DNA of 64,000 nt from an uncultured Gammaproteobacteria bacterium (GCA_964588955.1 CAZPQJ010000006.1:3580-67579); one strand, 5' to 3'; shown: positions 4,661 through 28,760, counted from the stretch's first letter. The notes: generated by a model from the letters alone, not told the origin. A program made the numbers and translations.

Positions 4661-4780
4661 TCTTTTAAAAACTAAACAAATACGAATGTCTAAAATCTAA
4701 ATCGGTTTAAACCCTTTAGAATTTAGTCTTTCCGATTTTGTTTGGACCTTCGTTTTTGAGATTTTAGTGTTTATAACTAT
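4661..4780. repeat. dispersed AT-rich modular repeat, self-complementary copy (modules ctttagaatttagtctttcc + gattttgtttggacctt)
   Basis: The same modules recur at 28705-28747 in swapped order, and related modules recur at 20761-20806 and 21964-22092. The two halves of the element are reverse-complementary (ctaaaatctaaatcgg ... ccgattttgtttgg...gattttag). It is inserted between xseA and xseB. Confidence 0.5.
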
Positions 4781-4984
4781 ATGCCATCAAAAAAAGAGAT
4801 CAATTTTGCTAAAGCGTTTGAGGAGCTCGAAGCCATCACCGAATGGTTTGAGCGCGACGGAGCTGACCTCGACGAAGGACTTAAAAAATTTGAGCGCGGC
4901 TTAGAGCTCGCCAAACAGTGCAAAGAAAAGTTGTCTGAAGTAGAGAACAAAGTCGAAACGATTAAGAAAAAATTTGTCGAATAA
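4781..4984 (+). CDS. xseB: exodeoxyribonuclease VII small subunit
   Basis: It is 67 aa with FEEALAELEAI-type helices (AFEELEAITEWFERDGADLDEGLKKFERGLELAKQCKEKL). It lies immediately downstream of xseA. Confidence 0.8.
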   Translation: MPSKKEINFAKAFEELEAITEWFERDGADLDEGLKKFERGLELAKQCKEKLSEVENKVETIKKKFVE

Positions 4985-5127
4985 TATGAAGGGCTATTCT
5001 AAAGCCGCGGCCCACAAAGGCAAAGTCGCTTATCGGACACCGTCGCGTATGCGACCGGTTACCATGAAGCCGATGAATAAGATCAAGATGTTCGATAATC
5101 AGAAGTTTGGTAAGTTGGATACATAAT

Positions 5128-5814
5128 ATGGCGACGTTTTTGCTGTCTGTTGGAGGATCAACGATTGTACCGGGAGGGAAAGTGAATGTGGAATTCTTAA
5201 AAGGGTTGCGTAAGCTTGTGGTGGAACGAGTGAAACTCGGAGATAAGTTTGTCATTATTTGTGGTGGCGGAGGAACATGTCGGGAGTATCAAGGGGGATT
5301 GAAGGAAATCATTAAACCGACAGCCAATGATCTTGACTGGCTGGGTATTTATACGACACATTTGAACGCGCAACTCGTTCGTTTCGTGTTTGGAAAGCTT
5401 GCGCATCCGGAGCTTGTGAATGATTACAAGACGTTCAATCCGAAAACGTGGAAGGGTGCCGTTGTCGTTGGTGGGGGGTTGAAGCCGGGTGGATCGACGG
5501 ATACAAACACAACATTGTTTGCGAAAAAGACGGGCGCCAAAATGATTATCAACATTTCCAACGTCGATTATTTGTACACCAAAGATCCACGCAAATTTAA
5601 AAATGCCGAACGCATTGGTGAAATTAGCTGGAAGAATTATCGCAAGATGATGGGCGGCAAATGGACTCCGGGGATGAACACACCGTTTGATCCAATTGCT
5701 TCCAAGCTGGCGGATCAAGCCAACATCGATGTTCTCCTTGTCGGATCGGACATTAAAAATTTGAGCAACGTGTTTTCTGATAAGCCGTTTAAGGGAACGG
5801 TTATTCATCGCTAG
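5128..5814 (+). CDS. pyrH: UMP kinase, archaeal/amino-acid-kinase type
   Basis: MATFLLSVGGS...VIICGGGGTCREY...VVVGGGLKPGGSTDTNTTLFAKKTGAKMIINISNVDYLYTKDP matches the carbamate-kinase-fold UMP kinase. The start is chosen at the second Met (5128); the ORF track starts at 5107. Confidence 0.7.
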   Translation: MATFLLSVGGSTIVPGGKVNVEFLKGLRKLVVERVKLGDKFVIICGGGGTCREYQGGLKEIIKPTANDLDWLGIYTTHLNAQLVRFVFGKLAHPELVNDYKTFNPKTWKGAVVVGGGLKPGGSTDTNTTLFAKKTGAKMIINISNVDYLYTKDPRKFKNAERIGEISWKNYRKMMGGKWTPGMNTPFDPIASKLADQANIDVLLVGSDIKNLSNVFSDKPFKGTVIHR

Positions 5815-5817
5815 GCT

Positions 5818-6573
5818 ATGTCGTTCATTCGCCCTCTTTCTACGCTTGGTCAACAGGATGTCGACGCAGTCGGTGGAAAAGGGGCGTCGCTCGGAGAGAT
5901 GATCCAGGCGGGTATCCCAGTGCCGCCTGGATTTGTGATTGTGGTGTCTGCGCACGAACAAGGCATGACCGATGATGTTGCGCGAGAGATTCTTCAAGCC
6001 TTCAAAACGTTGGGTGCGGACAAGGTTGCGGTGCGGTCGTCGGCGACGGCAGAAGATGGTGCCTCTGCCAGTTGGGCAGGGGAGCTGGAAACATATCTTA
6101 ACACCACGGAAGAGACCCTCCTTGACCGCGTCAACATGTGTTGGGATTCGCTTACCTCACCTCGAGCCGTGGCCTATCGTCAAGAACACGGGCAGCAAGA
6201 GGTCGCTATCTCCGTTGCGGTGGTTGTACAAAAGATGGTCAAGGCAGATGTTGCTGGGGTGGCCTTTACGGTGCACCCTGTTACGCACAGCCCAAATCAA
6301 ATCATGATCGAAGCCTGTTTAGGGCTTGGCGATAAGCTTGTGGGTGGGGAAGTTACTCCGAATAGTTACCTGGTAGACAAAGCCACCAAAGAGATTATTG
6401 AATGCGTTGTCATGGACGATGTGGTAGAACAAACACTGGCGGACGATACGGTGCAAGAACTCGCCCGATGGTGTGAACGCATCGAGAAGCATTATGGGCA
6501 TCCCTGCGACATTGAGTGGGCGATGGAGGGAGGGAAGTTGTATTTTTTGCAGTGTCGACCAATCACCGCGTGA
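5818..6573 (+). CDS. stand-alone PEP-utilising enzyme N-terminal (PPDK_N / ATP-grasp-like) domain protein
   Basis: GGKGASLGEM...VAVRSSATAEDGASASWAGELETYLN...LQCRPIT is the nucleotide-binding N-domain of PEP synthase/pyruvate phosphate dikinase. The protein ends where that domain ends, with no phosphohistidine or PEP domain. Confidence 0.6.
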   Translation: MSFIRPLSTLGQQDVDAVGGKGASLGEMIQAGIPVPPGFVIVVSAHEQGMTDDVAREILQAFKTLGADKVAVRSSATAEDGASASWAGELETYLNTTEETLLDRVNMCWDSLTSPRAVAYRQEHGQQEVAISVAVVVQKMVKADVAGVAFTVHPVTHSPNQIMIEACLGLGDKLVGGEVTPNSYLVDKATKEIIECVVMDDVVEQTLADDTVQELARWCERIEKHYGHPCDIEWAMEGGKLYFLQCRPITA

Positions 6574-6702
6574 TCGTATATTGCCAACAGGCTACAGCGA
6601 GCTGACGAGTTCTCTTTTCGCACGCAGGCTTCTCGCCAATGTGTGCCGAGTACGAAAAGAGGGGGTCAGCGAGCCTCAGCCTGTTTATTTGATAAACGAA
6701 AA

Positions 6703-6730
6703 GCGGGGCGTTGCGGCCCCGCTTATCGGA
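6703..6730 (-). terminator. rho-independent terminator downstream of rplL
   Basis: The plus strand reads aaaagcggggcgttgcggccccgcttatcgg. On the minus strand this is a GC-rich hairpin (aagcggggc/gccccgctt) followed by a U-run (ttttcgtttat). Confidence 0.5.
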
Positions 6731-6743
6731 TTGAATGGTGAGA

Positions 6744-7151
6744 TTATTTCAAGGTCACCGAAGCGCCGGCAGCTTCAAGTTTTCCCTTAATGTCGTCAGC
6801 CTCAGCCTTCTTGGCTCCAGCTTTGACCACTTTCGGAGCGCCGTCAACCATGTCTTTGGCTTCCTTCAAGCCCAAGCCGGTGATTTCGCGCACCACTTTA
6901 ATCACGTTGATCTTTTGTTCGCCAGCAGAGGTGAGCTCGACGTCAAAGGAATCTTTGGCTTCTGCAGCGCCAGCATCGCCACCAGCGACCGGAGCGGCCA
7001 TCATCATGGCAGGAGCGGCAGCGGACACACCGAACTTGTCTTCAAGGATTTTGACGAGTTCCGCAAGATCCAAGACGCTCATTTTTTCGATTTCGGAGAC
7101 GAGGCTCTGGAACTTGGCCGGAACCTCCACGTTTTTCATTTCATCTGACAT
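6744..7151 (-). CDS. rplL: 50S ribosomal protein L7/L12
   Basis: It has an Ala-rich hinge ([23 protein letters not shown]) and a C-terminal [50 protein letters not shown] domain. Confidence 0.9.
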
Positions 7152-7161
7152 AGGAGTTGTA

Positions 7162-7689
7162 TTAAACGGTTTTCTTATCTTTAACGGCGTTGAGTACGGT
7201 TACCAAGCCGCGGAGGTTGCCAGCAAGTACGTTGACAAAGCCAGAGACTGGCGCGTTGAGCGTACCCACGAGTTGTCCAAGCAATTGTTGCTTGCTCGGG
7301 AGTTTGGCAAGACTCTTGACCATGCTGGCATCAATGAATTTTCCTTCAAGGACACCGGCGCTGATCGACATTTTTTCACGGTCTTTCAGGAACTTGGCCA
7401 TGGTTTTGGCCGGAGTGACTTCGTCGCCGAAGCCGATCATGGTGAGAATCGATCCTTCGAGTTCGCGTGGCGCGAGGCCTTCGATGTTGGCCTCTTTGGC
7501 GGCGAGCTTGAGAAGAGTCTTCTTAGCCACGAACACTTTCATGTTCTCTTTTTTGGAGATGGCGCGCAGAGCGTTGGCATCGTCCATGGTGTAGCCGTTG
7601 ATCTGGGTAAAGACCGCGGACTTCATTCGTTTGAACATGTCGGTGACTTCGCTGACGACTTGTTCTTTTTGTTGGCGAGATTTTGCCAT
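7162..7689 (-). CDS. rplJ: 50S ribosomal protein L10
   Basis: [42 protein letters not shown]... is canonical L10. The start is set at the MAKS Met (minus-strand ATG at 7687-7689) rather than the upstream Met at 7755. Confidence 0.85.
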
Positions 7690-8037
7690 AGGTGATACCG
7701 CTGAAATTCCTTCATCTGCTGCGTTGCGGGGTCCCGCCACTTTGTCGACGTACATTTATGGTACGTCTCCAAAGCTGGCTTCCCCGCGCCTTGCAGCTGA
7801 AGTTTTTCAGCGGTCTCATTATGTTTCAGGTTAATCCTAGAAACAAAAATACGACCTTTAAAGCCGTGAGTTTCATCGAAAATCAAACCCGTAGGTCTGA
7901 AATTAAATGCCTCGACGGGACTTACTTGGCCTTTATCGGCCAAAACCCGTTGTCTACAGCTTGTGAGGGCAGTATAGGGGAAAGGCCGGATTTGGTCAAG
8001 AATTGGCGGGTCGAGCAATGGGAGTGGCTTTATAAAG

Positions 8038-9027
8038 TTACTTTTTAAAAATGTGTTCGCGATGGTAGGCAAGATATTCTTTCCTTTTGTTGCTTGGCGG
8101 CAGGGTAAACTTTCTTCCGTTCACAAGACTTAACTTCTTGATATTGAGAGGGGAGATGTATGGTGAAATAGCTATGATTCCATCATCCTGAAATGTAATA
8201 AATCCTTGATCAAATAGACGATCATAGGTAGGAGTCAAAAGTAACCCGTTGTTAAAATCAACTTTCTCGACATCGCTTGAGACGCTCCATGGTTTGATAT
8301 GACTTGCAACTAGGACACGTTCATCATTTACTCTCGTGATGACGCACTCAGAAGATTCGTCGAGCAACTTACGCCGGTACGTACCTTGTCCGATGCGTGC
8401 CTTAACGAGTTGTTCTTTTTCTTGAGCCGGGAGCACTTTCTCTTCAATCTCTTTTTCAACCTCACGTTCTTTTGCTGGATGATAATACGTGTTAAACGCG
8501 TAACTCAAGAGAGGTCTGAATAGAAAGAAAATAGTGCCGTCGGCAGCTTTAAGTTTGACAATAGAAACAAATGAGATGATTGGCAGAGCAATACCTCTAA
8601 AGTAGTCAAAAATACGCTCCTCAGACTTTATATAAAAACGTGAGGTATCCTGAGGCACTGCCCGTTCAAAGCTAAAGACTTCTCTATCAAGCAAATTCTG
8701 TAATTCTTGATAATATCCATCCCATGAACTAGAGATATCTTGACGATACTTTTGTTCTTGTTGCTCGTATTCGAATTTAGCGTCGTCTAGGTAATCAACC
8801 AAATCTCTTTTAAGAAATATTCCTTTCCCACTAAAATCCCCAAAGAAATCCCCGAAATCTTTCTTTTGCTGAGCACCTACATATAGCTTCGCCTCACCAT
8901 GTCCAGTTGTCCCCTCAAGTTTGTTATTTTTGACAAATGAATCTGCAATCGGAATGTTATCTACTTCATCGAGTACCTCAAATCGTTGTCCATCGATTTC
9001 TAGGAAGGTTGTTTCTTGATCAGTCAT
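8038..9027 (-). CDS. HNH-family endonuclease, putative type II restriction endonuclease
   Basis: The C-terminal RIGQGTYRRKLLDESSECVITRV...ASHIKPW block is the HNH_2-type nuclease motif. The N-terminal ~200 aa have no motif I recognise. The gene is AT-rich and co-oriented with, and 2 nt from, the C5-methyltransferase gene. Confidence 0.6.
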   Translation of the reverse strand: MTDQETTFLEIDGQRFEVLDEVDNIPIADSFVKNNKLEGTTGHGEAKLYVGAQQKKDFGDFFGDFSGKGIFLKRDLVDYLDDAKFEYEQQEQKYRQDISSSWDGYYQELQNLLDREVFSFERAVPQDTSRFYIKSEERIFDYFRGIALPIISFVSIVKLKAADGTIFFLFRPLLSYAFNTYYHPAKEREVEKEIEEKVLPAQEKEQLVKARIGQGTYRRKLLDESSECVITRVNDERVLVASHIKPWSVSSDVEKVDFNNGLLLTPTYDRLFDQGFITFQDDGIIAISPYISPLNIKKLSLVNGRKFTLPPSNKRKEYLAYHREHIFKK

Positions 9028-9029
9028 AA

Positions 9030-10127
9030 CTATAAATTCACTTTTGTTGAACTAACACCCATGTTTCTTAAAATGGCCATCAGAACATTGACCACGATAC
9101 TATTACCAGCTTGTTTATACATTTGCGTGTCGCTGACGACAATTTTAAAACTATCATCAAAGCCCATCAATCTCAAGCACTCTCGCGGTGACAGCTTTCG
9201 TATCCCCCCGCTGCGAGTAATATAGTTATCTACTCCAGCCCGATGCATTTTAGCCATTGTCGCCAGCAGCGGCCGAGCGATGGCTAGATCTGTTTCCGGT
9301 TTACTGTAAAACTTTTTTGTTCCGCTCGCCAAAACATACTTTGTTACTTTATCTGAAAGGAAATACTTATCATCAACTTTTCCTGCGGGTTGAAAAACAA
9401 AATCACCATGCCAATTAAATTGTTGATTTGCTTTTTGACAAAGTGCGACTCTCCCGTTTATTTGCGTATACTTCTTATCAAGATTTTTTTGACTCGTTAC
9501 AAACTTAATGCCTTTTTCAGGTAAAAAATACTTTTGGTCATACGCATCATCGAGCAAGTCGTGCATGGTTATTTTTAACTCAACAGGGTCGGGAAACTTG
9601 AAGTCTTTATTCTTCCGAAAGCCTACCACAAAGAGTCTCTCCCGATTCTGTGGAATTCCATAATCTTTTGCATTCAGAACCTGGGGAAAGTAGGTGTACC
9701 CAAGTTCATCAAATGTATTTTGAATAACTTCCCACGTTTTTCCGCTATCATGACTTAGTAAACCTTTAACATTCTCAAAAATAAATGCTTTCGGTTTTAT
9801 TTCGTCTATCAGACGAGCAAATTCATAAAATAAGGTACCTCGCGCATCCTTAAATCCTCGCCGTTTCCCGACCATTGAAAATGACTGACAGGGTGAACCA
9901 CCCACAAAAAGATCGACTTTCCCAGTAAACTTTTTTCCATCTATCTCCTGAACAAGATCAAACCAACGGGAGTTATCAACATGGTAGTTAGCAAAAAAAC
10001 TCTTTTTTACGTGCGGATCATTATCACAAGCAAAAACGAGCTCATGCTTTACACGCATGCGCTTTAAGGCATGTTCAATTGCACCTATTCCGCTAAATGC
10101 TGTAGCTAGTCTCAACATAGTGATCAT
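9030..10127 (-). CDS. DNA (cytosine-5)-methyltransferase
   Basis: Motif I is AFSGIGA. Motif IV is the PC motif GGSPCQSFS. Motif VI is ENV (FIFENVKGL). QNRERLFVVG and the target-recognition region follow. Confidence 0.85.
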   Translation of the reverse strand: MITMLRLATAFSGIGAIEHALKRMRVKHELVFACDNDPHVKKSFFANYHVDNSRWFDLVQEIDGKKFTGKVDLFVGGSPCQSFSMVGKRRGFKDARGTLFYEFARLIDEIKPKAFIFENVKGLLSHDSGKTWEVIQNTFDELGYTYFPQVLNAKDYGIPQNRERLFVVGFRKNKDFKFPDPVELKITMHDLLDDAYDQKYFLPEKGIKFVTSQKNLDKKYTQINGRVALCQKANQQFNWHGDFVFQPAGKVDDKYFLSDKVTKYVLASGTKKFYSKPETDLAIARPLLATMAKMHRAGVDNYITRSGGIRKLSPRECLRLMGFDDSFKIVVSDTQMYKQAGNSIVVNVLMAILRNMGVSSTKVNL

Positions 10128-10190
10128 TAAGACTCTGATCTTAACAGTTTTAGGGATCTCTTACCAGACCCTCTGTTTTTTATAGAGCAC

Positions 10191-10267
10191 TGGTGGATCC
10201 GACGAGATTCGAACTCACAACTTCGGGTGGTAATCTTGATGAGGTTGCCATTTACCTCCACGGACCT
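10191..10267 (-). pseudogene. degenerate tRNA-like sequence (tRNA-Val(TAC)-like), probable tRNA remnant or attachment-site scar
   Basis: The minus-strand sense is AGGTCCG-TG-GAGG-TAAATGGCAA-CCTC-A-TCAAG-ATTACCA-CCCGA-AGTT-GTGAG-TTCGAAT-CTCGT-CGGATCC-A-CCA. The T-arm, acceptor 3' strand, CCA and D-arm are perfect. Against this, the 1-72 pair is an A.C mismatch, the anticodon stem has two A.C mismatches, and position 37 is a pyrimidine. Confidence 0.35.
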
Positions 10268-12032: not shown

Positions 12033-12045
12033 GATCTTTTCAGAA

Positions 12046-12076: not shown

Positions 12077-12084
12077 GTTTCTGT

Positions 12085-19672: not shown

Positions 19673-20677
19673 ATGTTCTCAAAAAAAATTGCCATCGACT
19701 TAGGCACCACCACGGTCCTCGTTTACATGCCCAAACGAGGCATTATTATCCATGAGCCAAGCGTGGTGGCTATTTCGACGATTGATAAAAAAGTTTTGGC
19801 GGTGGGCAAAGAGGCCAAAGATATGCTCGGCCGCACGCCAGACACGATCGTTGCCAAGCGTCCGCTCAAAGACGGCGTGATCGCTGATTATCGCACCACC
19901 GAAGCCATGCTGCGCTATTTTATTAACAAGGCGCTCGGCGGCATTCGTTTGTTGCGTCCAGAAGTGATGGTGGCCGTGCCGGGTGGGATTACTTCCACCG
20001 AACGTCGCGCGGTGATTGATGCCACGGTGGCAGCGGGAGCTAAAGCGGCTTATATTATTAAAGAGCCAATTGTGGCGGCGATCGGCGCCAACATTCCCAT
20101 TGGTTCGCCGTCGGGGCACATGGTAGTAGACATTGGCGGAGGAACGGCAGAGATGGCGGTGCTATCTTTGGGAGGTATTGTCTCCTCGGCTTCGGTGCGT
20201 ATTGGTGGAGTCAAAATCGACGCGGCCATTCAGGAATTTATTCGTCGCAAATACGGCTTGGCCATTGGCGAGCGCACCAGCGAGGAAATCAAAATTCAAA
20301 TCGGTTCGGCCATGTATATGGCCGACAAGTTGACGATGGAAATTAAAGGCCGCGACATGGTGACGGGCTTGCCGAAGTTTTTAGAAGTGACTTCCGACGA
20401 CGTGACCGAAGCGATTCAAAATGAACTAGAAGGAATTGTGGCCACGGTGAAAGAAGTGCTTCATAAAACCCCGCCAGAACTATCTGCCGATGTGATGGAG
20501 AAGGGGATCGTGCTGACAGGCGGTTCCTCGCAGCTGCGTAATTTGGATCAATTGATCGCTGAAGCCACGGGGGTGCCGACCTATGTGGCCGATGAGCCGC
20601 AAATGTGCGTGGCCAAAGGAACGGGAATTGCTCTTGAAAACCTTGAGGCCTACAAACGCAGCATTTTTAGTAGTTAA
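19673..20677 (+). CDS. mreB: rod shape-determining actin homolog MreB
   Basis: IAIDLGTTTVLVYMP, the DGVIADY phosphate-2 region, the VVDIGGGTAEMAVLSLGG adenosine motif and LTGGSSQLRNLDQLI are all present. Confidence 0.85.
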   Translation: MFSKKIAIDLGTTTVLVYMPKRGIIIHEPSVVAISTIDKKVLAVGKEAKDMLGRTPDTIVAKRPLKDGVIADYRTTEAMLRYFINKALGGIRLLRPEVMVAVPGGITSTERRAVIDATVAAGAKAAYIIKEPIVAAIGANIPIGSPSGHMVVDIGGGTAEMAVLSLGGIVSSASVRIGGVKIDAAIQEFIRRKYGLAIGERTSEEIKIQIGSAMYMADKLTMEIKGRDMVTGLPKFLEVTSDDVTEAIQNELEGIVATVKEVLHKTPPELSADVMEKGIVLTGGSSQLRNLDQLIAEATGVPTYVADEPQMCVAKGTGIALENLEAYKRSIFSS

Positions 20678-20806
20678 ATTCGAAATTCTAAATCACAAAT
20701 CCGAAACAATAGGAAAATCCTAATCGGAAAAGGTGAAAACAGTTTGTGGATTTCTTTTTTAGATTTTAGAATTTGTTTGGTACTTCGGATTTAGAATTTA
20801 GTATTT
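20678..20806. repeat. left arm of ~125-bp inverted repeat flanking the GT4 gene (AT-rich modular repeat family)
   Basis: Its reverse complement matches 21964-22092. About the first 73 nt are identical and the remainder is ~90% identical. It ends 1 nt before the ATG at 20807. Confidence 0.6.
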
Positions 20807-21958
20807 ATGAAAACGTACGGCATTGACGCCAATCCGGCGGCGCGCAGCGAGCGCACCGGCACGGAACAATACGCCTTCAATCTGATTGAAGCGATGAAAC
20901 AAATACCGCTTGCCGATGGCGAGCGGGTTGTTTTGTATTCCGCGCAGACGCTGACGGGAGAGTTGGCGGAGATGCCGCAAGGCTGGTCGTCGCACGTGTT
21001 GGGTTGGCCAATCAAGCGTTTGTGGACTCAAGGACGATTGAGTTGGGAAATGTGGCGTCGAGCGCCAGACGTGTTGTTTGTGCCGGCGCATGTCGTGCCG
21101 AAGGTGCATCCCAAGCGGACGGTCACAACAGTGCACGATGTCGGTTTTCATCGCTATCCGTCTTTGTACACAACAAAAGCTCGCCGTTATCTTGAAGCGT
21201 CGACGAAGTTTGCCATTAAAACCTGCGCGGCGATTCTCACCCCGTCGGCCTTTACCAAACAAGAATTAGTCGAGCTGTATCACGCCAAGGCAGAAAAGAT
21301 CTTTGTGACTCCGCTGGCTCCGGGGAGTGTTTTCGTTCAAGCGCGTTCCGATCGAAGCGGGGACGTGTTGCAAGAGAACTTGCTTCCTCACGAAGCGCCA
21401 CCGTCGGCCGCTTACGGCGGCCACTACTTTTTGACCGTCAGCCGTATGGAGGCCAAAAAAAATATCGCCACATTGATTCGCGCGTTTGAAATGTTTAAAG
21501 AGCGCCGGGGGATTGGTGATCCGTTTCAATTGCTTCTGGTCGGTAAACCGGGATTTGGATTTGAGCAGATTCGTTTGCTGATCGATCGCTCGCCGTTTAA
21601 AGATGCTATTCGTTTGTTGGGATTTGTCGATGACGCGCCGTTGCTTGCGCTCATGCGTGGAGCGACGGCGTATGTGTATCCATCGTGGTACGAGGGATTG
21701 GGGATTTCGGCGATCGAGGCGCTGTCTGTTGGTACGCCGTTGATTGCCTCGAACATTCCCGCCTTGCGCGAAGCGGCGGAGGACGCGGCGTTGTATTTCG
21801 CGCCGTCCTCACCAGAAGAGTTGTCGGCACGATTGCGCCAAGCGGCCGACGGTGATGGCGTAGAAGTGATGCGTCAAAAAGGATTGGCGCGAGCGGCGGC
21901 GTTTGATTGGAATAAAACGGCGGAAGCCACCTGGAGCGTTTTGCGAGAACCTATTTAG
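20807..21958 (+). CDS. glycosyltransferase family 4 (GT-B, group 1)
   Basis: The C-terminal EGLGISAIEALSVGTPLIASNIPALRE is the GT4 E-x7-E region. The gene is bracketed exactly by inverted repeats. Confidence 0.75.
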   Translation: MKTYGIDANPAARSERTGTEQYAFNLIEAMKQIPLADGERVVLYSAQTLTGELAEMPQGWSSHVLGWPIKRLWTQGRLSWEMWRRAPDVLFVPAHVVPKVHPKRTVTTVHDVGFHRYPSLYTTKARRYLEASTKFAIKTCAAILTPSAFTKQELVELYHAKAEKIFVTPLAPGSVFVQARSDRSGDVLQENLLPHEAPPSAAYGGHYFLTVSRMEAKKNIATLIRAFEMFKERRGIGDPFQLLLVGKPGFGFEQIRLLIDRSPFKDAIRLLGFVDDAPLLALMRGATAYVYPSWYEGLGISAIEALSVGTPLIASNIPALREAAEDAALYFAPSSPEELSARLRQAADGDGVEVMRQKGLARAAAFDWNKTAEATWSVLREPI

Positions 21959-21963
21959 CGCAT

Positions 21964-22092
21964 TAAATACTAAATTCTAAATCCGAAGTACCAAACAAAT
22001 TCTAAAATCTAAAAAAGAAATCCACAAACTGTTTTCACTTTTTCCGATTAGGATTTCCCGATTGTTTCGTATTTCGTATTTAGATTTTAGAA
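21964..22092. repeat. right arm of ~125-bp inverted repeat flanking the GT4 gene
   Basis: It starts 6 nt after the stop codon: aatactaaattctaaatccgaagtaccaaacaaattctaaaatctaaaaaagaaatccacaaactgttttcac... It is the reverse complement of 20678-20806. Confidence 0.6.
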
Positions 22093-22129
22093 TTTAAATT
22101 TCCCCCCTCGTCTGTTATACTAAAACTCT

Positions 22130-22900
22130 ATGGATCACTTGTCCCGTGAGCTCATCCATTTGGGGCTCTCTGAAAAAGAAGCGGCGGTGTACACGGCCGC
22201 GCTGCAGCTTGGACCCGCCCCGGTGCAAGACATTGCCGAGCTCTCGCAAGTGAATCGCGCCACCACCTACGTGATGATCGAGATGTTGGAGAAGCGCGGG
22301 CTCATTTCTAGCAGTCAAAAAGACAACAAACGCATTTTTATTGCCGAAGCGCCGGAACGCTTGCTCTCCCTTTTGCGCGTACAGAAAAAAGAGTTGGAGG
22401 AACAGGAACAAGAGTTGGTGCAATTGCTGCCCAAGTTGAATGCCTTGTTTAACCGTGCTGGTGAAAAACCGGAAGTGCGCTATTTGGAAGGTCCGGAAGG
22501 ATTAGAAATGTTGCGCCGTGGGTTTGAAGGGCTGGAAGGGGAGACGGTGCAGATGATCGGCTATGATGCGTTTGTGAAAAGCATGGCCTTTGACGAAACG
22601 GTGCAGCACCGCGAAACACTGAAGAAAAAAGAAGCGCCGATTCGCGCTTTGCTAATTACCGAACGCTCGCGTGAAGAATTAGCGCCGCAGTTTTTGGAAA
22701 CGCTTGGCGCGGGATTTGATTTTCGCTTGGTGCCACCGAGTACCTTTCCGTTTTCTGTGCAAGGCGAAGTAACCGTGCGTGCCGATAAAATTGATTTGTT
22801 TACCTACGCCGCCACGCCACTAGCCATTGAAATCCGTTCGTCCATGTTGGCCGATGTCCTGCGCGCGTTGTTTGAAGTGGCTTGGATGGGAGTGAAATAG
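22130..22900 (+). CDS. TrmB-family transcriptional regulator
   Basis: The N-terminal wHTH is LGLSEKEAAVYTAALQLGPAPVQDIAELSQVNRATTYVMIEMLEKRGLI, followed by a coiled coil and a C-terminal sensor-like domain. Confidence 0.6.
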   Translation: MDHLSRELIHLGLSEKEAAVYTAALQLGPAPVQDIAELSQVNRATTYVMIEMLEKRGLISSSQKDNKRIFIAEAPERLLSLLRVQKKELEEQEQELVQLLPKLNALFNRAGEKPEVRYLEGPEGLEMLRRGFEGLEGETVQMIGYDAFVKSMAFDETVQHRETLKKKEAPIRALLITERSREELAPQFLETLGAGFDFRLVPPSTFPFSVQGEVTVRADKIDLFTYAATPLAIEIRSSMLADVLRALFEVAWMGVK

Positions 22901-22926
22901 CTCGCTTTTTTATGCGTTCTGAAATA

Positions 22927-22964: not shown

Positions 22965-23055
22965 CTTAGAGACCATGAGTCAAATCGTAATTGTCTAACT
23001 CACGGCCTCAGTTGATGCTGGTGGGAGAGTGTCCCATCCGGCGGTCGGAAGGCGT

Positions 23056-23274
23056 TCAACGGCCTTGGTGTTTTCGTTCCAAGTAGCCGTCCGCGTAGAT
23101 CACCACCAGGTCAAGCGTTTGGCAGGTCTTCTGCCAAAACGACTGGTCGGGTTTTTTCCACGCGGCACGGACGAGGCTCACGAAGAGCGCGATCCGACTC
23201 GGGTACTTTCCCGGTACGAACACTTCATGATGTGTGTACTCGGGGTTCTCGGCGAGAGGTATCTCTTTTTTCAT
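23056..23274 (-). CDS. hypothetical protein (72 aa) in high-GC islet
   Basis: MKKEIPLAENPEYTHHEVFVPGKYPSRIALFVSLVRAAWKK... It has sensible composition, lies in tandem with the preceding small gene, and has no recognisable family. Confidence 0.4.
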   Translation of the reverse strand: MKKEIPLAENPEYTHHEVFVPGKYPSRIALFVSLVRAAWKKPDQSFWQKTCQTLDLVVIYADGYLERKHQGR

Positions 23275-23290
23275 TTGTCCTCTTGGGTGT

Positions 23291-23434
23291 TTCAGAGCAC
23301 CCGATCGGCCAGGCTGATCAGCAGGGCGATGGTGAAGCCGAGACCAAGGAACCTCGGCCAGCGGCGAGGCTTCTGATCCTCAACCTCCACGGGGTGGTTA
23401 AAGTGAGGGACTTTCACGTACCGAACGCGATCCA
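23291..23434 (-). CDS. hypothetical small membrane protein (47 aa)
   Basis: MDRVRYVKVPHFNHPVEVEDQKPRRWPRFLGLGFTIALLISLADRVL was found by hand because it is below the ORF-track cut-off. It is preceded by a conserved leader that is shared with the gene at 23590..23979. Confidence 0.35.
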
Positions 23435-23520
23435 TGAGATTTCTCGTGGTTGAGGGAGATATGCTTCGTCCCGAACGATTCGAGCTTCCGCGAAAGAAGT
23501 GGCGATGGTGTCGTCAGTTC
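23435..23520 (-). promoter_or_regulatory. conserved leader/operator-like module (copy 1 of pair)
   Basis: The minus-strand sense is ttcgcggaagctcgaatcgttcgggacgaagcatatctccc...ATG. It contains the near-palindrome cgaacgattcg. Its paralog is 23980..24060 (~80% identical over ~60 nt). Confidence 0.35.
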
Positions 23521-23589
23521 TTTTGCGGAGGGGATCGATGTTCTCGATCCCCGCCATGACCGTCAGCTCGGCCGAGACGTCTTGCTGAA

Positions 23590-23979
23590 TTAGAACGGAT
23601 CCCGGGGGAGCCTGCAACGGTCCTCGAAGAACCTTGCCGTCTTCCCGTACTCGAACGGATTTGTACGCAGGGCGCACAGAATCCGCTGGAAGACCATCCA
23701 TTTGGTCTCCGGGACCCAAATCTCCCATTCCTGGTTCCACAGGATGAGCCTACAGGGGATCCGCAGTTCATCCGCGTACTGAACCAGATAGTGCCACTGC
23801 ACTTCATGCTGTGCGAATTCCCGACCATCTCGGGTCGGGCGGACGTCGCCACCGCGCGCCGCTTGCGCACGGGTCTCCTGTTGGAGCCTCGTTGTGGCGA
23901 ACTCGACGCTGTCCCCCTTCTTGAAAGGGGTGACGAGCTCCTTGATCCAGTTCGGGGCATCGAAAAGAGGGTGGGCCAT
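23590..23979 (-). CDS. hypothetical protein (129 aa) in high-GC islet
   Basis: The start is set at MAHPLFDAPNWIKEL, preceded by caggagtctgacATG, which has a good AGGAG ribosome-binding site. The upstream extension to 24108 lies inside the repeated leader. Confidence 0.45.
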   Translation of the reverse strand: MAHPLFDAPNWIKELVTPFKKGDSVEFATTRLQQETRAQAARGGDVRPTRDGREFAQHEVQWHYLVQYADELRIPCRLILWNQEWEIWVPETKWMVFQRILCALRTNPFEYGKTARFFEDRCRLPRDPF

Positions 23980-24060
23980 GTCAGACTCCTGTGGGGGGAG
24001 AGGTGCTTCCGCTCGAAGGGTTCGAGTTTCCGCGAATGAAGCGACGATCTGTGGGGTGAG
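23980..24060 (-). promoter_or_regulatory. conserved leader/operator-like module (copy 2 of pair)
   Basis: ttcgcggaaactcgaacccttcgagcggaagcacctctccccc...ATG is paralogous to 23435..23520. Confidence 0.35.
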
Positions 24061-24199
24061 ATCTTCGACTCGTTCGCGGTGAGGTCTATCAGAATTGATG
24101 GACCTCACGTTGAGACGTTGGATGACGCAAGGGAGTTTTCACTGCTACCTCACTCATCCGCGAAATCCGCATTTTTACCGGTTGCGGTTCCGGAGCCTT

Positions 24200-24952
24200 T
24201 CAGGCGGCGAGGCGGGCGAGTTCGGCCGCGATGACCCGCTTGACCTCGTTGGCGCGCGGGTGGCGCTCGACCATGGCCTTCAGGTCCTTGCTGGTCGCCG
24301 GCAGGGTGGCGCCCAGCTGGTGCCCCTTGGCCTTGACGGCCATGAACACCTGGGACACCTGGTGGCGGTTGCTGAGGCGCGTCCAGGCGACCTCGACCTG
24401 TGTCGTCAGGGGCTCGACGACCGCCTCCTCGATGATGAAGTCGGCGTCGTTGGGCACCGGCGCGCACATGGCGATCGGCGCCTCGACCTCGAGGTCGGCC
24501 ACGGTCGGCTGGCGCTTGAGGACGTTGAGCCCGAGCTTGCGCTCGCAGGTGATCCGCAGGTTGCGGATCGACCGCTCGGCCTTGGGGTCGGTGCCGCTGG
24601 CCTTGAGGAGCCAGACGGCCACGCGACCCTTGCCGATGAACTCGAGCCCGAGGACGTCGCGGCGGATCGCCACGACCCAGGTGGGGTTCCGCCTCCCCGA
24701 CGCCATGGCGCCGAGGATCTGGAAGCCGTCGCCCATGACGGCGGCCATCCAGGGGCGGTTCGAGAACTCGCTCTCGATCACCATCCCCGGCGCCTTCTGC
24801 TCGGCGTCGAACTCCCGCAGGGCGAGCTCACGCCGTCGGTCGGCCACGAAGGCCTCCTTGGCCCGCTCCGTGGCCATCGGGTTCGTGCGGACGAACCGGC
24901 TGAGGGCGGCGGCGAGGGACGGGGTGAGGGACTTGATGATGCTGGAACGCAC
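24200..24952 (-). CDS. hypothetical protein (250 aa), largest gene of the high-GC islet
   Basis: The composition is balanced (K/E/R/A) with a coiled-coil-like N-terminus (ATERAKEAFVADRRRELALREFDAEQKA). The overlapping plus-strand ORFs are R/G/D/H-rich antisense artefacts. No family is recognised. Confidence 0.45.
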   Translation of the reverse strand: MRSSIIKSLTPSLAAALSRFVRTNPMATERAKEAFVADRRRELALREFDAEQKAPGMVIESEFSNRPWMAAVMGDGFQILGAMASGRRNPTWVVAIRRDVLGLEFIGKGRVAVWLLKASGTDPKAERSIRNLRITCERKLGLNVLKRQPTVADLEVEAPIAMCAPVPNDADFIIEEAVVEPLTTQVEVAWTRLSNRHQVSQVFMAVKAKGHQLGATLPATSKDLKAMVERHPRANEVKRVIAAELARLAA

Positions 24953-25092
24953 GGGGGACTCCTGGATGGGGGGGCTTTGGTGTCTATGTCCGGACCTACA
25001 GATTGCTTTCCGGATCTTAGTACCGAATCACGTGTTCATAATTCGATCCTTAGATGCGGAGGGGACCGAGTGCCAGTCCCCTCGAAGCGCGT

Positions 25093-25281
25093 TCAAAAGC
25101 CGGGGCGGTGGGAAGCCCGAGCGATCTCCTGGCGGCGAACCGCCTCGGAGAACTCCCGGCTTCCTACGTGTCGCCGACCAAGGAGATCTTGGATCTCCCG
25201 ATCGGCGACACGCTCATCCCGCGATCCTCTTCCGGCTCGATCGAGCCGGTCGAGAATCGTGTTCTCGATGTTCCAATTCAT
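25093..25281 (-). CDS. hypothetical protein (62 aa)
   Basis: MNWNIENTILDRLDRAGRGSRDERVADREIQDLLGRRHVGSREFSEAVRRQEIARASHRPGF has its start at ggagggaccATG, a strong ribosome-binding site. The longer track ORF starts inside the conserved leader. Confidence 0.4.
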   Translation of the reverse strand: MNWNIENTILDRLDRAGRGSRDERVADREIQDLLGRRHVGSREFSEAVRRQEIARASHRPGF

Positions 25282-25372
25282 GGTCCCTCCGGGATCGGTG
25301 ATTGAGGAGCGAAATTGCTGCCTCACCGAATGACACAATCTTTTGGATTCTGTCTTTTGGTGAAGGGCAGCG
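25282..25372 (-). promoter_or_regulatory. conserved ~90-nt leader with 10-bp inverted repeat (copy 1)
   Basis: The minus-strand sense is gctgcccttcaccaaaagacagaatccaaaagattgtgtcattcggtgaggcagcaatttcgctcctcaatcaccgatcccggagggaccATG. It pairs cttcaccaaa/ttcggtgagg. Its paralog is at 25537..25628. Confidence 0.35.
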
Positions 25373-25413
25373 CGTTGAGTTCGCGCCGCCCGACGAAGGT
25401 CAGGCCCTGGGTC

Positions 25414-25536
25414 CTACCAACCCTTGGGAGGCTTCACGAGAAGCCTCCACAGGATGATTGCGAGTGCCGTCGCGATCGCGAAGTCCAGGAACGGGGAGCA
25501 GAAGCTCCCCCAAAAGATATCGTAAATCGTCTGCAT
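25414..25536 (-). CDS. hypothetical small membrane protein (40 aa)
   Basis: MQTIYDIFWGSFCSPFLDFAIATALAIILWRLLVKPPKGW starts at cctggagggatcATG. The long upstream extension in the ORF track is G/R/P-rich junk. Confidence 0.35.
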   Translation of the reverse strand: MQTIYDIFWGSFCSPFLDFAIATALAIILWRLLVKPPKGW

Positions 25537-25628
25537 GATCCCTCCAGGATCTGTGGTTGAGAGAGCTGAAGTGCTCCTCACCAAATGACAGAATCGTTTT
25601 TGATTATGTTCTTTGGTGAGGGGCGGCT
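25537..25628 (-). promoter_or_regulatory. conserved ~90-nt leader with perfect 10-bp inverted repeat (copy 2)
   Basis: gccgcccctcaccaaagaacataatcaaaaacgattctgtcatttggtgaggagcacttcagctctctcaaccacagatcctggagggatcATG pairs cctcaccaaa/tttggtgagg perfectly, with a 27-nt spacer. Confidence 0.35.
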
Positions 25629-25661
25629 GTGAAGCAGCCGCCTCAGAGAGTCGGGGACCGA

Positions 25662-25868
25662 TCAGGCCGCGCGGCTCGTCGATCGGGATTTGTACGGCGC
25701 GAACGGTCGCGCCGACTGGGTCGCCACGGTCGGCCGGTGGCGGGTTGTCGGCATCGGCGCATTGCGCACGATGCCGATGATGTACGCGACGAGGCCGAGC
25801 CCCACCGCGGTGAACAGGACAGCGACCAGGCCGTCCCCAAAAGCCGACATCCATTGCTGGACTTCCAT
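25662..25868 (-). CDS. hypothetical small membrane protein (68 aa)
   Basis: MEVQQWMSAFGDGLVAVLFTAVGLGLVAYIIGIVRNAPMP... has one TM helix and a GC3-rich minus-strand frame. Confidence 0.35.
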   Translation of the reverse strand: MEVQQWMSAFGDGLVAVLFTAVGLGLVAYIIGIVRNAPMPTTRHRPTVATQSARPFAPYKSRSTSRAA

Positions 25869-26347
25869 TCGATACCCCCGAAGGAGTTCTACTGAGCGAA
25901 GGGATTCCGCTCATGCATCTGGAGGGTAGGGCCTCAGTGACCTGCCCGAAGGCTGGTGTGGGGCATGACCGACGAGGGTGTAATGAGTGAGCGAGGCCCA
26001 GTCATTACATTCGCCGATCGATCCTCCTTCGCTCTTTGCAGAGCTTCGGAAGGACTTACTCTCTCCTCCATGTGCATGAACGCAAAACCGCTTGTCTGCC
26101 TTGATCTGTTCTAGAGAGATCAAGTCAAACAAGCGGTAACGAACGGGCACTTGGCTTACCTAAAGATAGATAGCCGTAGCCGTTCGTGTTGACTCTCTCC
26201 CCAGAGAATATATTCAGTTTTGAAGCCGCGTTGATGAGCTCGTAACTCATCTTCGCGAGGGATTACTCTACCACTTTTTTGCCCTTTTGTCAAGAGTTCA
26301 GCGCCACTTCATAGCTAATATTAGCCACTTTTTTCCACCCTCTTTTT

Positions 26348-27202
26348 GTGCTATACTTAGTCAATATGACGGAATCCGCCCATCAGCTGATTGGACACGC
26401 TCGAGCACTCGATGTGCTTAACCGTCTGCAAACCAACGGCCGGTTGGGGTCAGCTTTGTTGATTGTGGGAGCCAATGGGGTTGGCAAGCGCGCGTTAGTG
26501 GAAATCGTTTTCGGCTCACTCGCGACTAATCCCAATGCCATGGTGATTGAACGGGCGTTGAACGATAAAGACGAACTGAAAAAGAATATCAGCATTGATC
26601 AAGTGCGTGATCTGGTTGCTCGCATGGGTTTGAGTACTTTTGGGACGGGAAAAAAGATCGGCTTGATTGACGGCGCGGAATTCTTGTCGATGGATGCTTC
26701 AAACGCCTTGTTAAAAACGTTAGAAGATCCTACCGGCGACACGCTCATGATTTTGCTGGCCACGTCGACGCAAACGATTCCCGCGACGGTTTTGTCGCGT
26801 TGCCAAACAATCTATTTGCCGTTAGTCGCTCGTGCCGAAATTGTTCGCGCGCTCACGGAGCGTGGAGCGAGCGCGACCGTGGCGAACGAGATCGCCGAGT
26901 CTGCCTGCGGCCGTCCGGGACTGGCGCTGCGACTTCTTCAGAACCCCGAGTTGTTGGCACAACGTCGCGAGCAGGCGCAGCAAGTCAAACAATTGATCTC
27001 TGCACCACTCGCGGTGAAACTCGGACGTATTGGCGAATATACAAAAGCAGACAAAGCGGAACTGGAAGCTACACTCGATACGTGGGAAACAACCCTTCAT
27101 GCCGACGGTCAACATCTGCTACTGAAGAAGTTGATCCGCGCCCGTGCCGCCATTCGTCAAAACGTTCATCCAACCCTGGCACTTGAACACGCCTTTCTTT
27201 AA
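26348..27202 (+). CDS. holB: DNA polymerase III delta' subunit
   Basis: It has an AAA+ box (LIVGANGVGKRAL), LLKTLEDP (sensor-1 region, consensus LLKTLEEP) and SRCQ (arginine finger / box VII). Confidence 0.75.
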   Translation: MLYLVNMTESAHQLIGHARALDVLNRLQTNGRLGSALLIVGANGVGKRALVEIVFGSLATNPNAMVIERALNDKDELKKNISIDQVRDLVARMGLSTFGTGKKIGLIDGAEFLSMDASNALLKTLEDPTGDTLMILLATSTQTIPATVLSRCQTIYLPLVARAEIVRALTERGASATVANEIAESACGRPGLALRLLQNPELLAQRREQAQQVKQLISAPLAVKLGRIGEYTKADKAELEATLDTWETTLHADGQHLLLKKLIRARAAIRQNVHPTLALEHAFL

Positions 27203-27213
27203 TTATTTTTTGT

Positions 27214-28260
27214 ATGAAAAAAATCATTCTTCTTTTCGTTGCCTTGTCCTTAACTGGCGCCGGTTGTCTAAACGTCAAAACAAAGTCGGTCGACAATGGT
27301 GGTGTGTATGTTACGAACAACGCGGGTGCCAAGTGGTCGGCTAAATCCTTATTGCCAACGGCAAGTGGCGTGGCTTCCATTGATTCAGCCAACGTCGAAG
27401 CGATCACCTTTGATCCGCAAGATCCAGACACGCTGTATTTGGGAACGAGCGCCAACGGCATGTTGGTTTCGTACGACAACGCGGAGAGCTGGCAGTTGAT
27501 TAAAGAGCCAGAAATGCGCAGTGGAACGGTAAAAAGTATTGCCGTGGATCCAAAAGACGTCTGCACTGTGTACGTGGCCAAAGGAGCGAACCTTATGAAA
27601 ACCACCGATTGTCTGCGTTCGTTCGACACGCAAGCGTTTGTGGAAACGAATGGTAAGGCGGTCGATGTGGTGCGTACGGACTGGTATAACGATCAAAACG
27701 TTTGGCTCGGAACGGCCGCTGGAGACATTGTCAAAAGCACTGATGGTGGAAAAAGTTGGTCAACGCTTGGGCGCCCCAAAGATGCGTTGGTCGATATTCT
27801 GGTTAGCAATGGTGACAGCCGCGTGGTCTTTGCGGTGACTGAAAGCAAAGGCATTTGGCGCACCACCGACGGCGGAGCCTTTTGGCATGTGTTGACCGAC
27901 GAGTTAGCGGCGGTCGGAGACTTGGGCAAAGGACGATTCATGACCCAGTCTAAAGACGGCAGCATTTTCTACTACGTTTGCGAGTACGGCATTTTGCGTT
28001 CGGTCGACCAGGGCGCCAGCTGGTCCGCGCTGACCTTGCTCACCAAGCCAAAGAGCACGGTGATTTATTCCATGGCGGTGAGCCCGTTTGATGCCAATGT
28101 GTTGTACTACAGCACGGCTAACACCTTTTATTCTTCCACCGACGGCGGAGCCACCTGGAACACCCGCGAACTGCCTAGCACCCGCACAGCGACGGTGATG
28201 ACGGTGGATCCAAACGATGCTTCGCTGTTGTTGGCAGGATTTGCGACGATAGAAAAGTAG
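27214..28260 (+). CDS. lipoprotein with BNR/Asp-box repeats (Ycf48-like beta-propeller)
   Basis: The lipobox is LTGAGC. There are at least five SxDxGxxW repeats (YDNAESW, STDGGKSW, TTDGGAFW, SVDQGASW, STDGGATW). Confidence 0.6.
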   Translation: MKKIILLFVALSLTGAGCLNVKTKSVDNGGVYVTNNAGAKWSAKSLLPTASGVASIDSANVEAITFDPQDPDTLYLGTSANGMLVSYDNAESWQLIKEPEMRSGTVKSIAVDPKDVCTVYVAKGANLMKTTDCLRSFDTQAFVETNGKAVDVVRTDWYNDQNVWLGTAAGDIVKSTDGGKSWSTLGRPKDALVDILVSNGDSRVVFAVTESKGIWRTTDGGAFWHVLTDELAAVGDLGKGRFMTQSKDGSIFYYVCEYGILRSVDQGASWSALTLLTKPKSTVIYSMAVSPFDANVLYYSTANTFYSSTDGGATWNTRELPSTRTATVMTVDPNDASLLLAGFATIEK

Positions 28261-28261
28261 T

Positions 28262-28334
28262 AGTTAAAAACTAAAAACAAAAAGTCTAAGGTCCAAACAA
28301 AGCCTAAAGACGAAAGTCTAATGCATAAAACGGT
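28262..28334. repeat. AT-rich repeat, left arm flanking the four-helix-bundle gene
   Basis: It contains agtctaaggtccaaacaaa (28283-28301). The reverse complement of this is at 28705-28723. Confidence 0.45.
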
Positions 28335-28676
28335 ATGTACGAACTAGAAGGTCGTTGTTTGCAGTTCGCTAAAGACGTTAGACTTTTTGTAAAATCTTTA
28401 CCGAAAACCATTGCCAATGCAGAAGACGGCAAACAGCTCATTCGTTCTTCTGGATCCGTAGGAGCGAATTATATTGAAGCCAATGAATCTGTCGGTAAGA
28501 AGGATTTTGTCTTTCGTCTGAAGATTGCCAAAAAAGAAGCTAAGGAGTCCGGGTATTGGTTAAAGTTGATTGATTGCGGATCTGATTCTGCGTTCGTGCA
28601 GCGTGCTGATGCGTTAGTGCAAGAAGCGACAGAGTTGATGTTGATTCTTGCTTCGGTTATTAGAAAGTGTGAATAG
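28335..28676 (+). CDS. four-helix-bundle protein (23S rRNA intervening-sequence protein family)
   Basis: At 113 aa, it has FAKDVRLFVKSLPKTIANAEDGKQLIRSSGSVGANYIEANESVGKKDFVFRLKIAKKEAKESGYWLKL. This matches the remembered TIGR02436 pattern (GANYxEA ... K.E..E..YWL). Confidence 0.6.
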   Translation: MYELEGRCLQFAKDVRLFVKSLPKTIANAEDGKQLIRSSGSVGANYIEANESVGKKDFVFRLKIAKKEAKESGYWLKLIDCGSDSAFVQRADALVQEATELMLILASVIRKCE

Positions 28677-28680
28677 TTTT

Positions 28681-28760
28681 CGCATTCGTTTTTAGTAATT
28701 AGATTTTGTTTGGACCTTAGACTTTAGAATTTAGTCTTTCCTACTTGGCAATTAAGACTT
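28681..28760. repeat. AT-rich repeat, right arm flanking the four-helix-bundle gene; shares modules with 4661-4780
   Basis: gattttgtttggaccttagactttagaatttagtctttcc carries the same two modules as 4726-4760, in swapped order. Confidence 0.45.

Follow-up and report, generated by a model that had tools for sequence, protein, structure and literature searches.

The intervening sequences (IVSs) of bacterial 23S rRNA genes are located in helix 25 or 45 of the gene. In Coxiella burnetii, an open reading frame (ORF) for the S23p protein lies within the inverted-repeat stem of the IVS, which is cut by RNase III, and tandem heptamers (GACAGAT, three to four times) are situated just upstream (PMC4990558). 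Origin and function of the ORF-bearing 23S IVSs and of S23p have been without explanation for approximately 30 years (PMC4990558). We analyzed a DNA stretch of 64,000 nucleotides (nt) from an uncultured bacterium (CAZPQJ010000006.1:3580-67579 of GCA_964588955.1), in the following referred to as the window, which contains five AT-rich repeat stretches between protein-coding genes; two of them enclose a gene of the PF05635 family. Judging from the names on the best xseA homologues, the lineage is a Patescibacterium near Candidatus Uhrbacteria.

A preliminary description of the window had suggested a dispersed family of modular repeats resembling miniature inverted-repeat transposable elements (MITEs) or repetitive extragenic palindromic (REP) elements. 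The repeat family is real, and it is larger and more ordered than first supposed. We consider it probable that the five stretches represent one family of palindromic, selfish and horizontally spreading IVS-like intergenic cassettes with MITE-like derivatives. Beyond the earlier account, the analysis disclosed a composition of 7-nt units, a link to PF05635 and the 23S IVSs, a spread across phyla and the ancestral position of the GT4 gene between two of the copies.

The five stretches (Table 1) were found where they had been described, except that the right-hand copy ends at approximately 28745 and not at 28760; the region 28745-28773 is the native frr promoter. Their gene context was confirmed as xseA/xseB, mreB/GT4/trmB-like and BNR-repeat gene/PF05635 gene/frr. 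They are the longest AT-rich islands at co-directional junctions of the window, whose other junctions are tight (median 13 nt). Copies A, B and C comprise 120-134 nt, are self-complementary with arms of 35-40 nt and have no coding capacity. In copy B the TAA stop codon of mreB resides inside the TTAAAT terminus, and the other end reaches the ATG of GT4 (A at position 20807).

Table 1. Coordinates of the repeat copies and of the enclosed gene in the window
Feature	Coordinates	Strand	Location and basis
Copy A, ORF-less hairpin	4661..4780	.	whole spacer between xseA (stop 4658-4660) and xseB (start 4781); arm-profile match 4717-4775
Copy B, ORF-less hairpin	20674..20807	.	mreB/GT4 junction; inverted repeat, fold and arm profile
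Copy C, ORF-less hairpin	21964..22097	.	GT4/trmB junction; reverse complement of B (93%)
Arm D, 5' of the gene-carrying copy	28261..28334	+	from the BNR-gene stop (28258-28260) to the PF05635 start codon; arm profile 28325-28265, minus orientation
PF05635/TIGR02436 four-helix-bundle gene ('23S rRNA intervening sequence protein', S23p/Avd-like), 113 aa, cargo of the full element	28335..28676	+	Pfam 2.4e-12; TIGR02436 8.8e-19
Arm E, 3' of the gene-carrying copy, inverted relative to D	28677..28745	+	arm profile 28682-28743, plus orientation; native frr promoter starts at its end

The copies are related by exact modules as well as by inverted similarity. The 20-mer CTTTAGAATTTAGTCTTTCC is present at 4714 and 28722 and the 17-mer GATTTTGTTTGGACCTT at 4734 and 28702, thus in swapped order as had been noticed before, although the range given at that time (4726-4760) was off by a few bases. 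Copies B and C form a 134-nt inverted repeat with a complementarity of 93%, arms D and E (28281-28329 and 28677-28725) are 80% complementary over 49 nt, and the remaining pairs reach 80-81% over 35-55 nt. The core pattern TTTGTTTGGNNCTTNGNNTTTN{4,7}TTTAG, which specifies 21 bases, gave five matches in the window against 0.00 expected. The motif TTAGAATTTAG with up to two mismatches occurred 30 times (12.8 +/- 3.5 expected), and base identity at a lag of 7 nt amounted to 0.499 compared with 0.308 +/- 0.019 in shuffled sequences, approximately 10 standard deviations (sd) above them. Copies A, B and C were predicted to fold into long hairpins (z = -2.7 to -5.9 against shuffles). For copy A a fold of -25.3 kcal/mol (z = -3.3) was obtained, whose stem pairs approximately 4666-4705 with 4733-4773; copy C reached z = -5.9. 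When 28255-28750 was folded as a whole, the minimum-energy structure (z = -5.8) joined D and E in a stem that surrounds the ORF. The self-complementary copies and inverted pairs of the preliminary description were corroborated by these data, and fold prediction, which it had named as a check, gave better stems than shuffles for all three hairpins and for D with E.

Sequences of the same or a very close strain were also available. Hairpin C (window 21984-22100) differed from that of a second strain (L149 1-120) by five central positions, the adjoining trmB sequence being identical. At some of these positions the second strain has the base of hairpin B, a hint of gene conversion between the inverted copies B and C. 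Independent assemblies from short reads, belonging to this strain or a very close one, break at the repeats (L066, end 8534; L067, end 4840; L002). Their ends are either inside hairpin B, after 49-85 nt, as in the Logan contigs L066 and L067, or immediately outside of the PF05635 unit, the behavior expected of repeats that break assembly graphs.

The arms follow a simple grammar. A basic arm consists of five 7-nt units, four of the type AAAnnnn and one AAACAAA (reverse complement TTTGTTT); AAATTCT, AAATCCG and AAGTACC are examples from the window. The full element contains two such arms in inverted orientation around the PF05635 gene, and the hairpins of 120-134 nt are composed of an arm, a short center and a second arm. 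The left arm of copy B reads AAATTCG AAATTCT AAATCAC AAATCCG AAACAAT, and the reverse complement of its right arm AAATACT AAATTCT AAATCCG AAGTACC AAACAAA, followed by inner units. Similarly, the reverse complement of E is AAAGACT AAATTCT AAAGTCT AAGGTCC AAACAAA plus inner units, and in D the heptad units are arranged around CCAAACAAA. Of the modules named in the preliminary description, TTTGTTTGGACC corresponds to the fifth and fourth units and TAGAATTTAG to two outer or inner units. The apparent swapping of modules thus results from the fact that they are composites of heptad units. Hairpins at different loci, namely B and C of the window and three hairpins of the relative L155, share the center GGAAAAGG(T/G)GAA..TTTG, which is not derived from an ORF. 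This common center argues that hairpins were copied as hairpins.

To study the association of arms and gene independently of the repeat sequence, 80 independent metagenome loci were fetched which had been chosen solely for a PF05635 homologue. An arm profile built from the matches of the genome scan described below was run on them. It gave 36 matches, 34 of which were situated within 300 nt of the gene. With few exceptions, upstream matches were on the minus and downstream matches on the plus strand. The inverted-repeat score of one flank against the other lay above all shuffles in 55 of the 69 testable loci. By direct reading, almost every gene was preceded by (AAATCCG/AAATTCG/AAGCACG/AATATCG)x4 + AAACAAA + 5 nt + ATG, with the mirrored array on its downstream side. 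Exactly four AAnnnCG units were counted before AAACAA in 30 of the 34 upstream arms that had at least one such unit; likewise, 32 of the 39 downstream arms with at least one CGnnnTT unit had exactly four of them after the TTGTTT-type core. AAACAA started 12 nt before the ATG in 32 of 49 cases. The arms of the window obey the same four-plus-one rule.

The gene between the arms always encoded a PF05635 protein of 113-122 aa. It was co-oriented with its upstream neighbor in 49 cases against 4 and with its downstream neighbor in 40 against 8, and typically started 65-85 nt after the upstream stop codon, which equals one arm length. PF05635 units with heptad arms (68 of 74) used three dialects, CGAAA (43), ACAAA (23) and CTAAA (2), the window possessing one of the two rare CTAAA units. 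Protein identity followed the arm dialect (0 of 1000 permutations). The window protein has thousands of homologues at 60-70% identity, whose names include Kaiserbacteria, Planctomicrobium sp. SH661 and Desulfobacterales. In comparison, housekeeping-type identities between the window genome and its own relatives were 44-58% (holB), 52-66% (BNR) and 55-69% (GT4). Similarity of the PF05635 proteins across phyla thus exceeds that of housekeeping proteins within the lineage. No match to the window protein was found in defence or phage protein libraries.

A search for copies in other genomes, also named as a check in the preliminary description, was successful. The scan made use of the one exact core pattern and covered contigs with one genome per species. 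It yielded 63 matching stretches, while by our own arithmetic approximately one is expected by chance for uniform composition and approximately six for AT-rich genomes. Four of the matches lacked a heptad context and look like chance hits. The others showed TTTAGAA, TTTCGAA or TTTAGGA units around TTTGTTTGGnnCTT, usually with a mirrored arm 20-60 nt upstream. The titles of the records include Patescibacteria, Microgenomates, Shapirobacteria, Roizmanbacteria, Saccharibacteria, WWE3, Planctomycetes, Planctomicrobium, Pirellulales, Owenweeksia, Bacteroidota, Chloroflexi, Dehalococcoidales, Acidobacteriota, Gammaproteobacteria and others. A repeat restricted to the window lineage is not compatible with this spread. 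Three metagenome-assembled genomes (MAGs) contained 6-12 loci each. The core pattern had no match in viral contigs, and no phage vector was found.

At positions outside the fixed pattern, arms of the same genome were more similar (0.539) than arms of different genomes (0.442; 0 of 1000 permutations). Genome subtypes were discernible, GGACCTT/GGTACTT in the window, GGTTCTT in Owenweeksia and Planctomicrobium and GGAGCTT in JALVIH01. In the window, the gene-flanking arms D and E have the exact 17- and 20-mers in common with hairpin A. Among the approximately 60 genome loci found via the arm pattern, only one (L059 of Owenweeksia) carries a PF05635 gene, so that ORF-less copies form the majority. 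This locus has the layout of the window, an arm, the PF05635 homologue and an inverted arm, and the arms beside its gene belong to the GGTTCTT type seen in the other copies of the genome. The matches resided between co-directional genes in 40 cases, between convergent genes in 11 and between divergent genes in three; the orientation of ORF-less arms relative to neighboring genes was weakly biased (27 to 13). Some loci exhibited additional arrangements. In the Owenweeksia MAG, arms were found head-to-tail, three copies repeating every 108 nt and five every 41 nt (L030 1221-1500; L049 1083-1298), which indicates that arms can expand as tandem arrays. Another Patescibacteria MAG (L051 2293-2995) has rpsL, encoding ribosomal protein S12, between two ORF-less hairpins, like GT4 in the window. 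A G+C-rich palindrome, CCTGCCTGCCGGCAGGCAGG, directly abuts arms in the MAGs JALVIH01 and WFRL01 (L004, L008, L022, L032, L047). It might represent another repeat module, situated inside the heptad elements or next to them.

Filled and empty junctions were compared in relatives of the window lineage. The 120-nt hairpin between xseA and xseB is shared by the window and a second strain (L148), in which it shows one substitution. The junction is empty in relatives that keep this gene order, with a 17-nt overlap of the genes (L150, L151) or a 2-nt spacer (L152). In L153 (4214-4670) a HicB/HicA toxin-antitoxin pair occupies this junction in place of the hairpin; the tight junction has thus taken insertions repeatedly. 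The closest relative by protein identity, L154 (frr 88%, GT4 69%), is devoid of the copies of the window. Its spacers amount to 2 nt (mreB/GT4) and 10 nt (GT4/trmB), and its 70-nt BNR/frr spacer contains no PF05635 gene. In L156, mreB and GT4 are separated by 1 nt, the 84-nt GT4/trmB spacer has no heptad arm, and the frr promoter follows directly after the BNR stop codon without a PF05635 gene. In contrast to L154, the more distant L155 harbors a hairpin on either side of GT4 as well as a PF05635 unit upstream of frr. All of them are of the CGAAA dialect, and the filled mreB/GT4 site has the same termini as copy B. Between the window and L155, the PF05635 proteins share an identity of 56%, which is below the identity of the window protein to homologues of other phyla. 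The shared site therefore indicates either that the junction has long been occupied, with turnover, or that it was used repeatedly.

At the filled sites, the upstream gene takes its TAA stop codon from a TTAAAT terminus of the element, whose opposite end abuts an ATG. The presence or absence of elements at exact gene junctions affirmed the dispersed, modular and palindromic MITE/REP-like family of the preliminary description. Its copies flanking GT4 exist as well; since the order mreB-GT4-trmB is kept in three relatives and the junctions of relatives are empty (mreB/GT4 spacer of 1-2 nt in two of them), GT4 is ancestral, and B and C are two separate junction insertions and no GT4 cassette. For the same reasons, GT4 as cargo of a composite element was rejected.

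How such elements might work is suggested by the precedent of the 23S IVSs. The copies would be co-transcribed with the host operon, and stems in the transcript, formed by D with E or by each hairpin on itself, would bring the upstream stop codon and the downstream start codon to the foot of the stem. These stems are plausible substrates of RNase III like those of the 23S IVSs, and may be cut accordingly. As suggested by its distribution, the family would act as a mobile, selfish element with MITE-like, non-autonomous copies.

Several observations weigh against such a family of selfish cassettes. Neither a transposase nor an integrase or reverse transcriptase domain was detected in the 64-kb window, and we know of no catalytic activity of PF05635 proteins. 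On the sense strand of 60 gene-flanking stems, A.C mismatches outnumbered G.U pairs (217 versus 145; p = 2e-4). Because there is no G.U excess on this strand, the step of RNA pairing and RNase III cutting receives no independent support from the sequences. The equal regularity of both arms fits recognition of DNA, or separate recognition of each arm, at least as well as RNA folding. A clear target-site duplication was not readable at the three filled and empty junctions: comparison permits TA at mreB/GT4 and not at GT4/trmB in L155, with an ambiguity of 1-3 nt in the boundaries. That the distant L155 has elements at these three junctions could also mean that they are old, stable residents which were precisely lost later, and L154 (11930-11999) keeps TAAAAACGAAACAAAATTC right after the stop of the BNR gene, possibly a scar or relic of a lost element. 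Finally, a single exact pattern biases copy numbers and host range, and some of the host names rest on MAG binning.

The preliminary description had alternatively considered a promoter/terminator cassette, as TAGAAT is similar to a -10 box and the elements abut stop and start codons. None of the window copies contains a terminator-like site, and no promoter-like site on the plus strand facing xseB or GT4 was found in them. The frr promoter (TTGGCA-17-TAAACT) and the trmB -10 box TGTTATACT are native, lie outside of the repeats and are conserved in relatives without elements. Thus, this claim had to be abandoned, even though the right end of copy C contributes a TTTAAA that is spaced like a -35 box relative to the native -10 box of trmB. 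In a wider sense, the elements might be promoter or terminator modules or selected operon insulators which are kept for the benefit of the host. Their preference for co-directional and convergent over divergent gene pairs would suit such a role, but the closest relative lives without all copies, junctions of relatives comprise 1-10 nt or overlap, and a lineage-specific signal is difficult to reconcile with a nearly identical architecture across phyla with different promoter types. We regard a host regulatory cassette as very improbable. The promoters of frr (28745-28782) and trmB (22111-22129; extended -10 TGnTATAMT) are located just 9-10 nt before the start codon and are conserved in L154, L155 and L156, which suggests near-leaderless mRNAs in this lineage.

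Two other explanations accept the repeats as elements and differ in their way of propagation. In the case of ordinary MITEs, the hairpins would have arisen by deletion from a conventional insertion sequence, e.g., of the IS630/Tc1-like, TA-duplicating type, whose transposase would move them in trans, with the PF05635 gene as a passenger. Terminal inverted repeats, a size of 120-134 nt, lack of coding capacity, several copies, insertion polymorphism and genome-specific subtypes speak for them, and a TA duplication would be consistent with the TAAAT...ATTTA ends of filled sites. A random passenger, however, does not account for a PF05635 protein of 113-122 aa between the arms throughout the 80 loci and a fixed distance of 12 nt between arm and ATG. 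Moreover, the window has no transposase domain, the duplication is not demonstrable at GT4/trmB in L155 and the core pattern is absent from viral contigs; we give ordinary MITEs a low probability. It is similarly improbable that the hairpins never move and that each of them is the decayed PF05635 unit of its own junction. In favor of this, L154 has kept a short relic resembling heptads at the site of the full unit in the window and L155, and ORF-less and ORF-bearing IVSs coexist in the 23S rRNA of different bacteria (PMC4990558). Decay in situ is contradicted by the conserved center not derived from an ORF in B, C and the three L155 hairpins, by arms far outnumbering gene-carrying units, by the tandem arrays of Owenweeksia and by the 93% identity of B and C. 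Chance similarity of AT-rich, low-complexity spacers can practically be discarded. The copies consist of approximately 70% A+T, and TTAGAATTTAG with two mismatches is also found elsewhere; nevertheless, this alternative, raised in the preliminary description, was refuted by the exact shared 17- and 20-mers, the 134-nt inverted repeat, the five core-pattern matches, the lag-7 signal and arm-profile matches beside the same gene in independent metagenomes.

Within the family of selfish IVS-like cassettes, a novel reading of the protein is conceivable, which we put forward tentatively and not as our main claim. The nearest solved structure to the window PF05635 protein, 2RLD, was deposited with five chains, and a PF05635-family homologue of Xanthomonas is a homopentamer (cited in PMC4990558). 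Five subunits facing five units per arm are a striking coincidence, and the array ends 12 nt before the PF05635 start codon and is mirrored downstream. A homopentamer might recognize the arms directly, with one subunit per 7-nt unit of the five-unit array. Protein and arms would constitute a self-contained module following the logic of REP-associated tyrosine transposases (RAYTs) and REP doublets forming hairpins (REPINs); the protein would control its own translation, label the ends of the element to be copied by enzymes of the host, or both. The hairpins would act as non-autonomous clients, and classical 23S IVSs would be members that had landed in rRNA. If true, this would explain the origin of the IVSs and the role of S23p, a question open since the early 1990s. 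No description of a link between PF05635 genes and heptad arms was found in the literature. A review of diversity-generating retroelements ties PF05635 to Avd alone, the Avd protein of these retroelements being a structural relative (PMC10053308).

The data tie an old unexplained element and a widespread uncharacterised protein family to a precise and testable repeat architecture. As a cultured carrier exists (Planctomicrobium sp. SH661), a bench test is possible. Genes with translational coupling in relatives are set apart by the elements, which also supply stop codons and -35-like boxes. In practical terms, they break short-read assemblies, and spurious small ORFs in MAG annotations are likely.

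Some features of the window unrelated to the repeats were also recorded. At 50940-61847 (+) an ORF of 3635 aa was identified that contains approximately 17 tandem repeats of 336 nt (112 aa) at about 54.9-60.6 kb, which are 60-80% identical and gave faint Pfam matches alone. The region 8041-10127 (-) has a GC content of 0.39-0.40 compared with approximately 0.50 and carries genes for an HNH_2 endonuclease and a C-5 cytosine DNA methylase; the two probably form a restriction-modification pair that was acquired. Between trmB and holB (23000-26300) the GC content rises to 0.67 and ORFs without Pfam match occur on both strands; L154-L156 contain different small minus-strand ORFs there, indicating that this region is variable.

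In agreement with the preliminary description, in which no described repeat family had been recognized, nothing on these arms was found in Rfam or in the literature, in which subscription journals were mostly uncovered, so that an earlier mention is possible. At the gathering threshold, Rfam returned four tRNAs alone for the window and tRNAs alone for 20 related loci; in E-value mode, the region 20600-22200 gave just chance matches to plant microRNA hairpins far below threshold. Integron gene cassettes (attC) were rejected, although no scan for the R/L box consensus was made: the window has no integrase domain, the copies are scattered over junctions of unrelated operons, and the position of GT4 is ancestral. 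The three hairpins A, B and C have the properties of MITEs, i.e., terminal inverted repeats, less than 300 bp, no coding capacity and multi-copy sets in other genomes. A parent element with the same termini and a transposase was not found, PF05635 being the sole gene between the arms and the window having no transposase domain.

Cyanobacterial short tandemly repeated repetitive (STRR) sequences are intergenic tandem 7-nt units, and pneumococcal BOX elements are modular with variable number and order of subunits. By description, the family resembles the former in unit length and the latter in modularity, whereas unit sequences and hosts differ and neither is described as an inverted four-plus-one array bracketing a PF05635 gene. 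Transcripts of Correia elements fold into hairpins cleaved by RNase III, and the elements can donate promoter boxes. Like these elements of Neisseria (Correia repeat enclosed elements, CREE, or Neisseria miniature insertion sequences, NEMIS; 100-155 bp), the window copies have terminal inverted repeats and lie next to genes, and copy C donates the -35-like TTTAAA; co-transcription and RNase III processing are possible for them as well. Unlike Correia elements, they have an unrelated sequence, no layout with a site for integration host factor and no demonstrable TA duplication, and they are composed of 7-nt units, occur also in a form with a gene inside and extend beyond a single genus. The family shares with REP elements and the REPIN/RAYT system short extragenic palindromes in many copies, genome-specific types, doublets and arrays, and a single-copy gene bracketed by inverted copies of a dispersed repeat. 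Here, however, the bracketed gene encodes a helical bundle of 113 aa without a Y1 (IS200/IS605-like) transposase domain, the arms are 35-nt heptad arrays and not GC-rich hairpins of 20-40 nt, and the family spans phyla.

In its architecture, the window element is most closely matched by the ORF-bearing 23S IVSs of Leptospira and Coxiella burnetii. Both have a PF05635 ORF inside an inverted-repeat stem, heptamers directly upstream and short ORF-less versions, and they would also agree in a patchy, horizontally transferred distribution and in insertion into a transcribed region. Unlike the IVSs, the element lies between protein-coding genes (BNR-repeat gene and frr), and its units are of the AAATYCG, AAATTCT and ACAAATA types in a fixed four-plus-one arm layout. 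A blastn comparison of Escherichia coli rrl and rrs with the window, the 80 homologue loci and all other fetched loci gave no 23S or 16S similarity; as none of the elements lies in rRNA, they stand outside the 23S IVS class. On our reading, the 23S IVSs would join a larger, multi-phylum family that resides mainly between protein-coding genes and combines strict arms of five 7-nt units with a very conserved pentameric protein.

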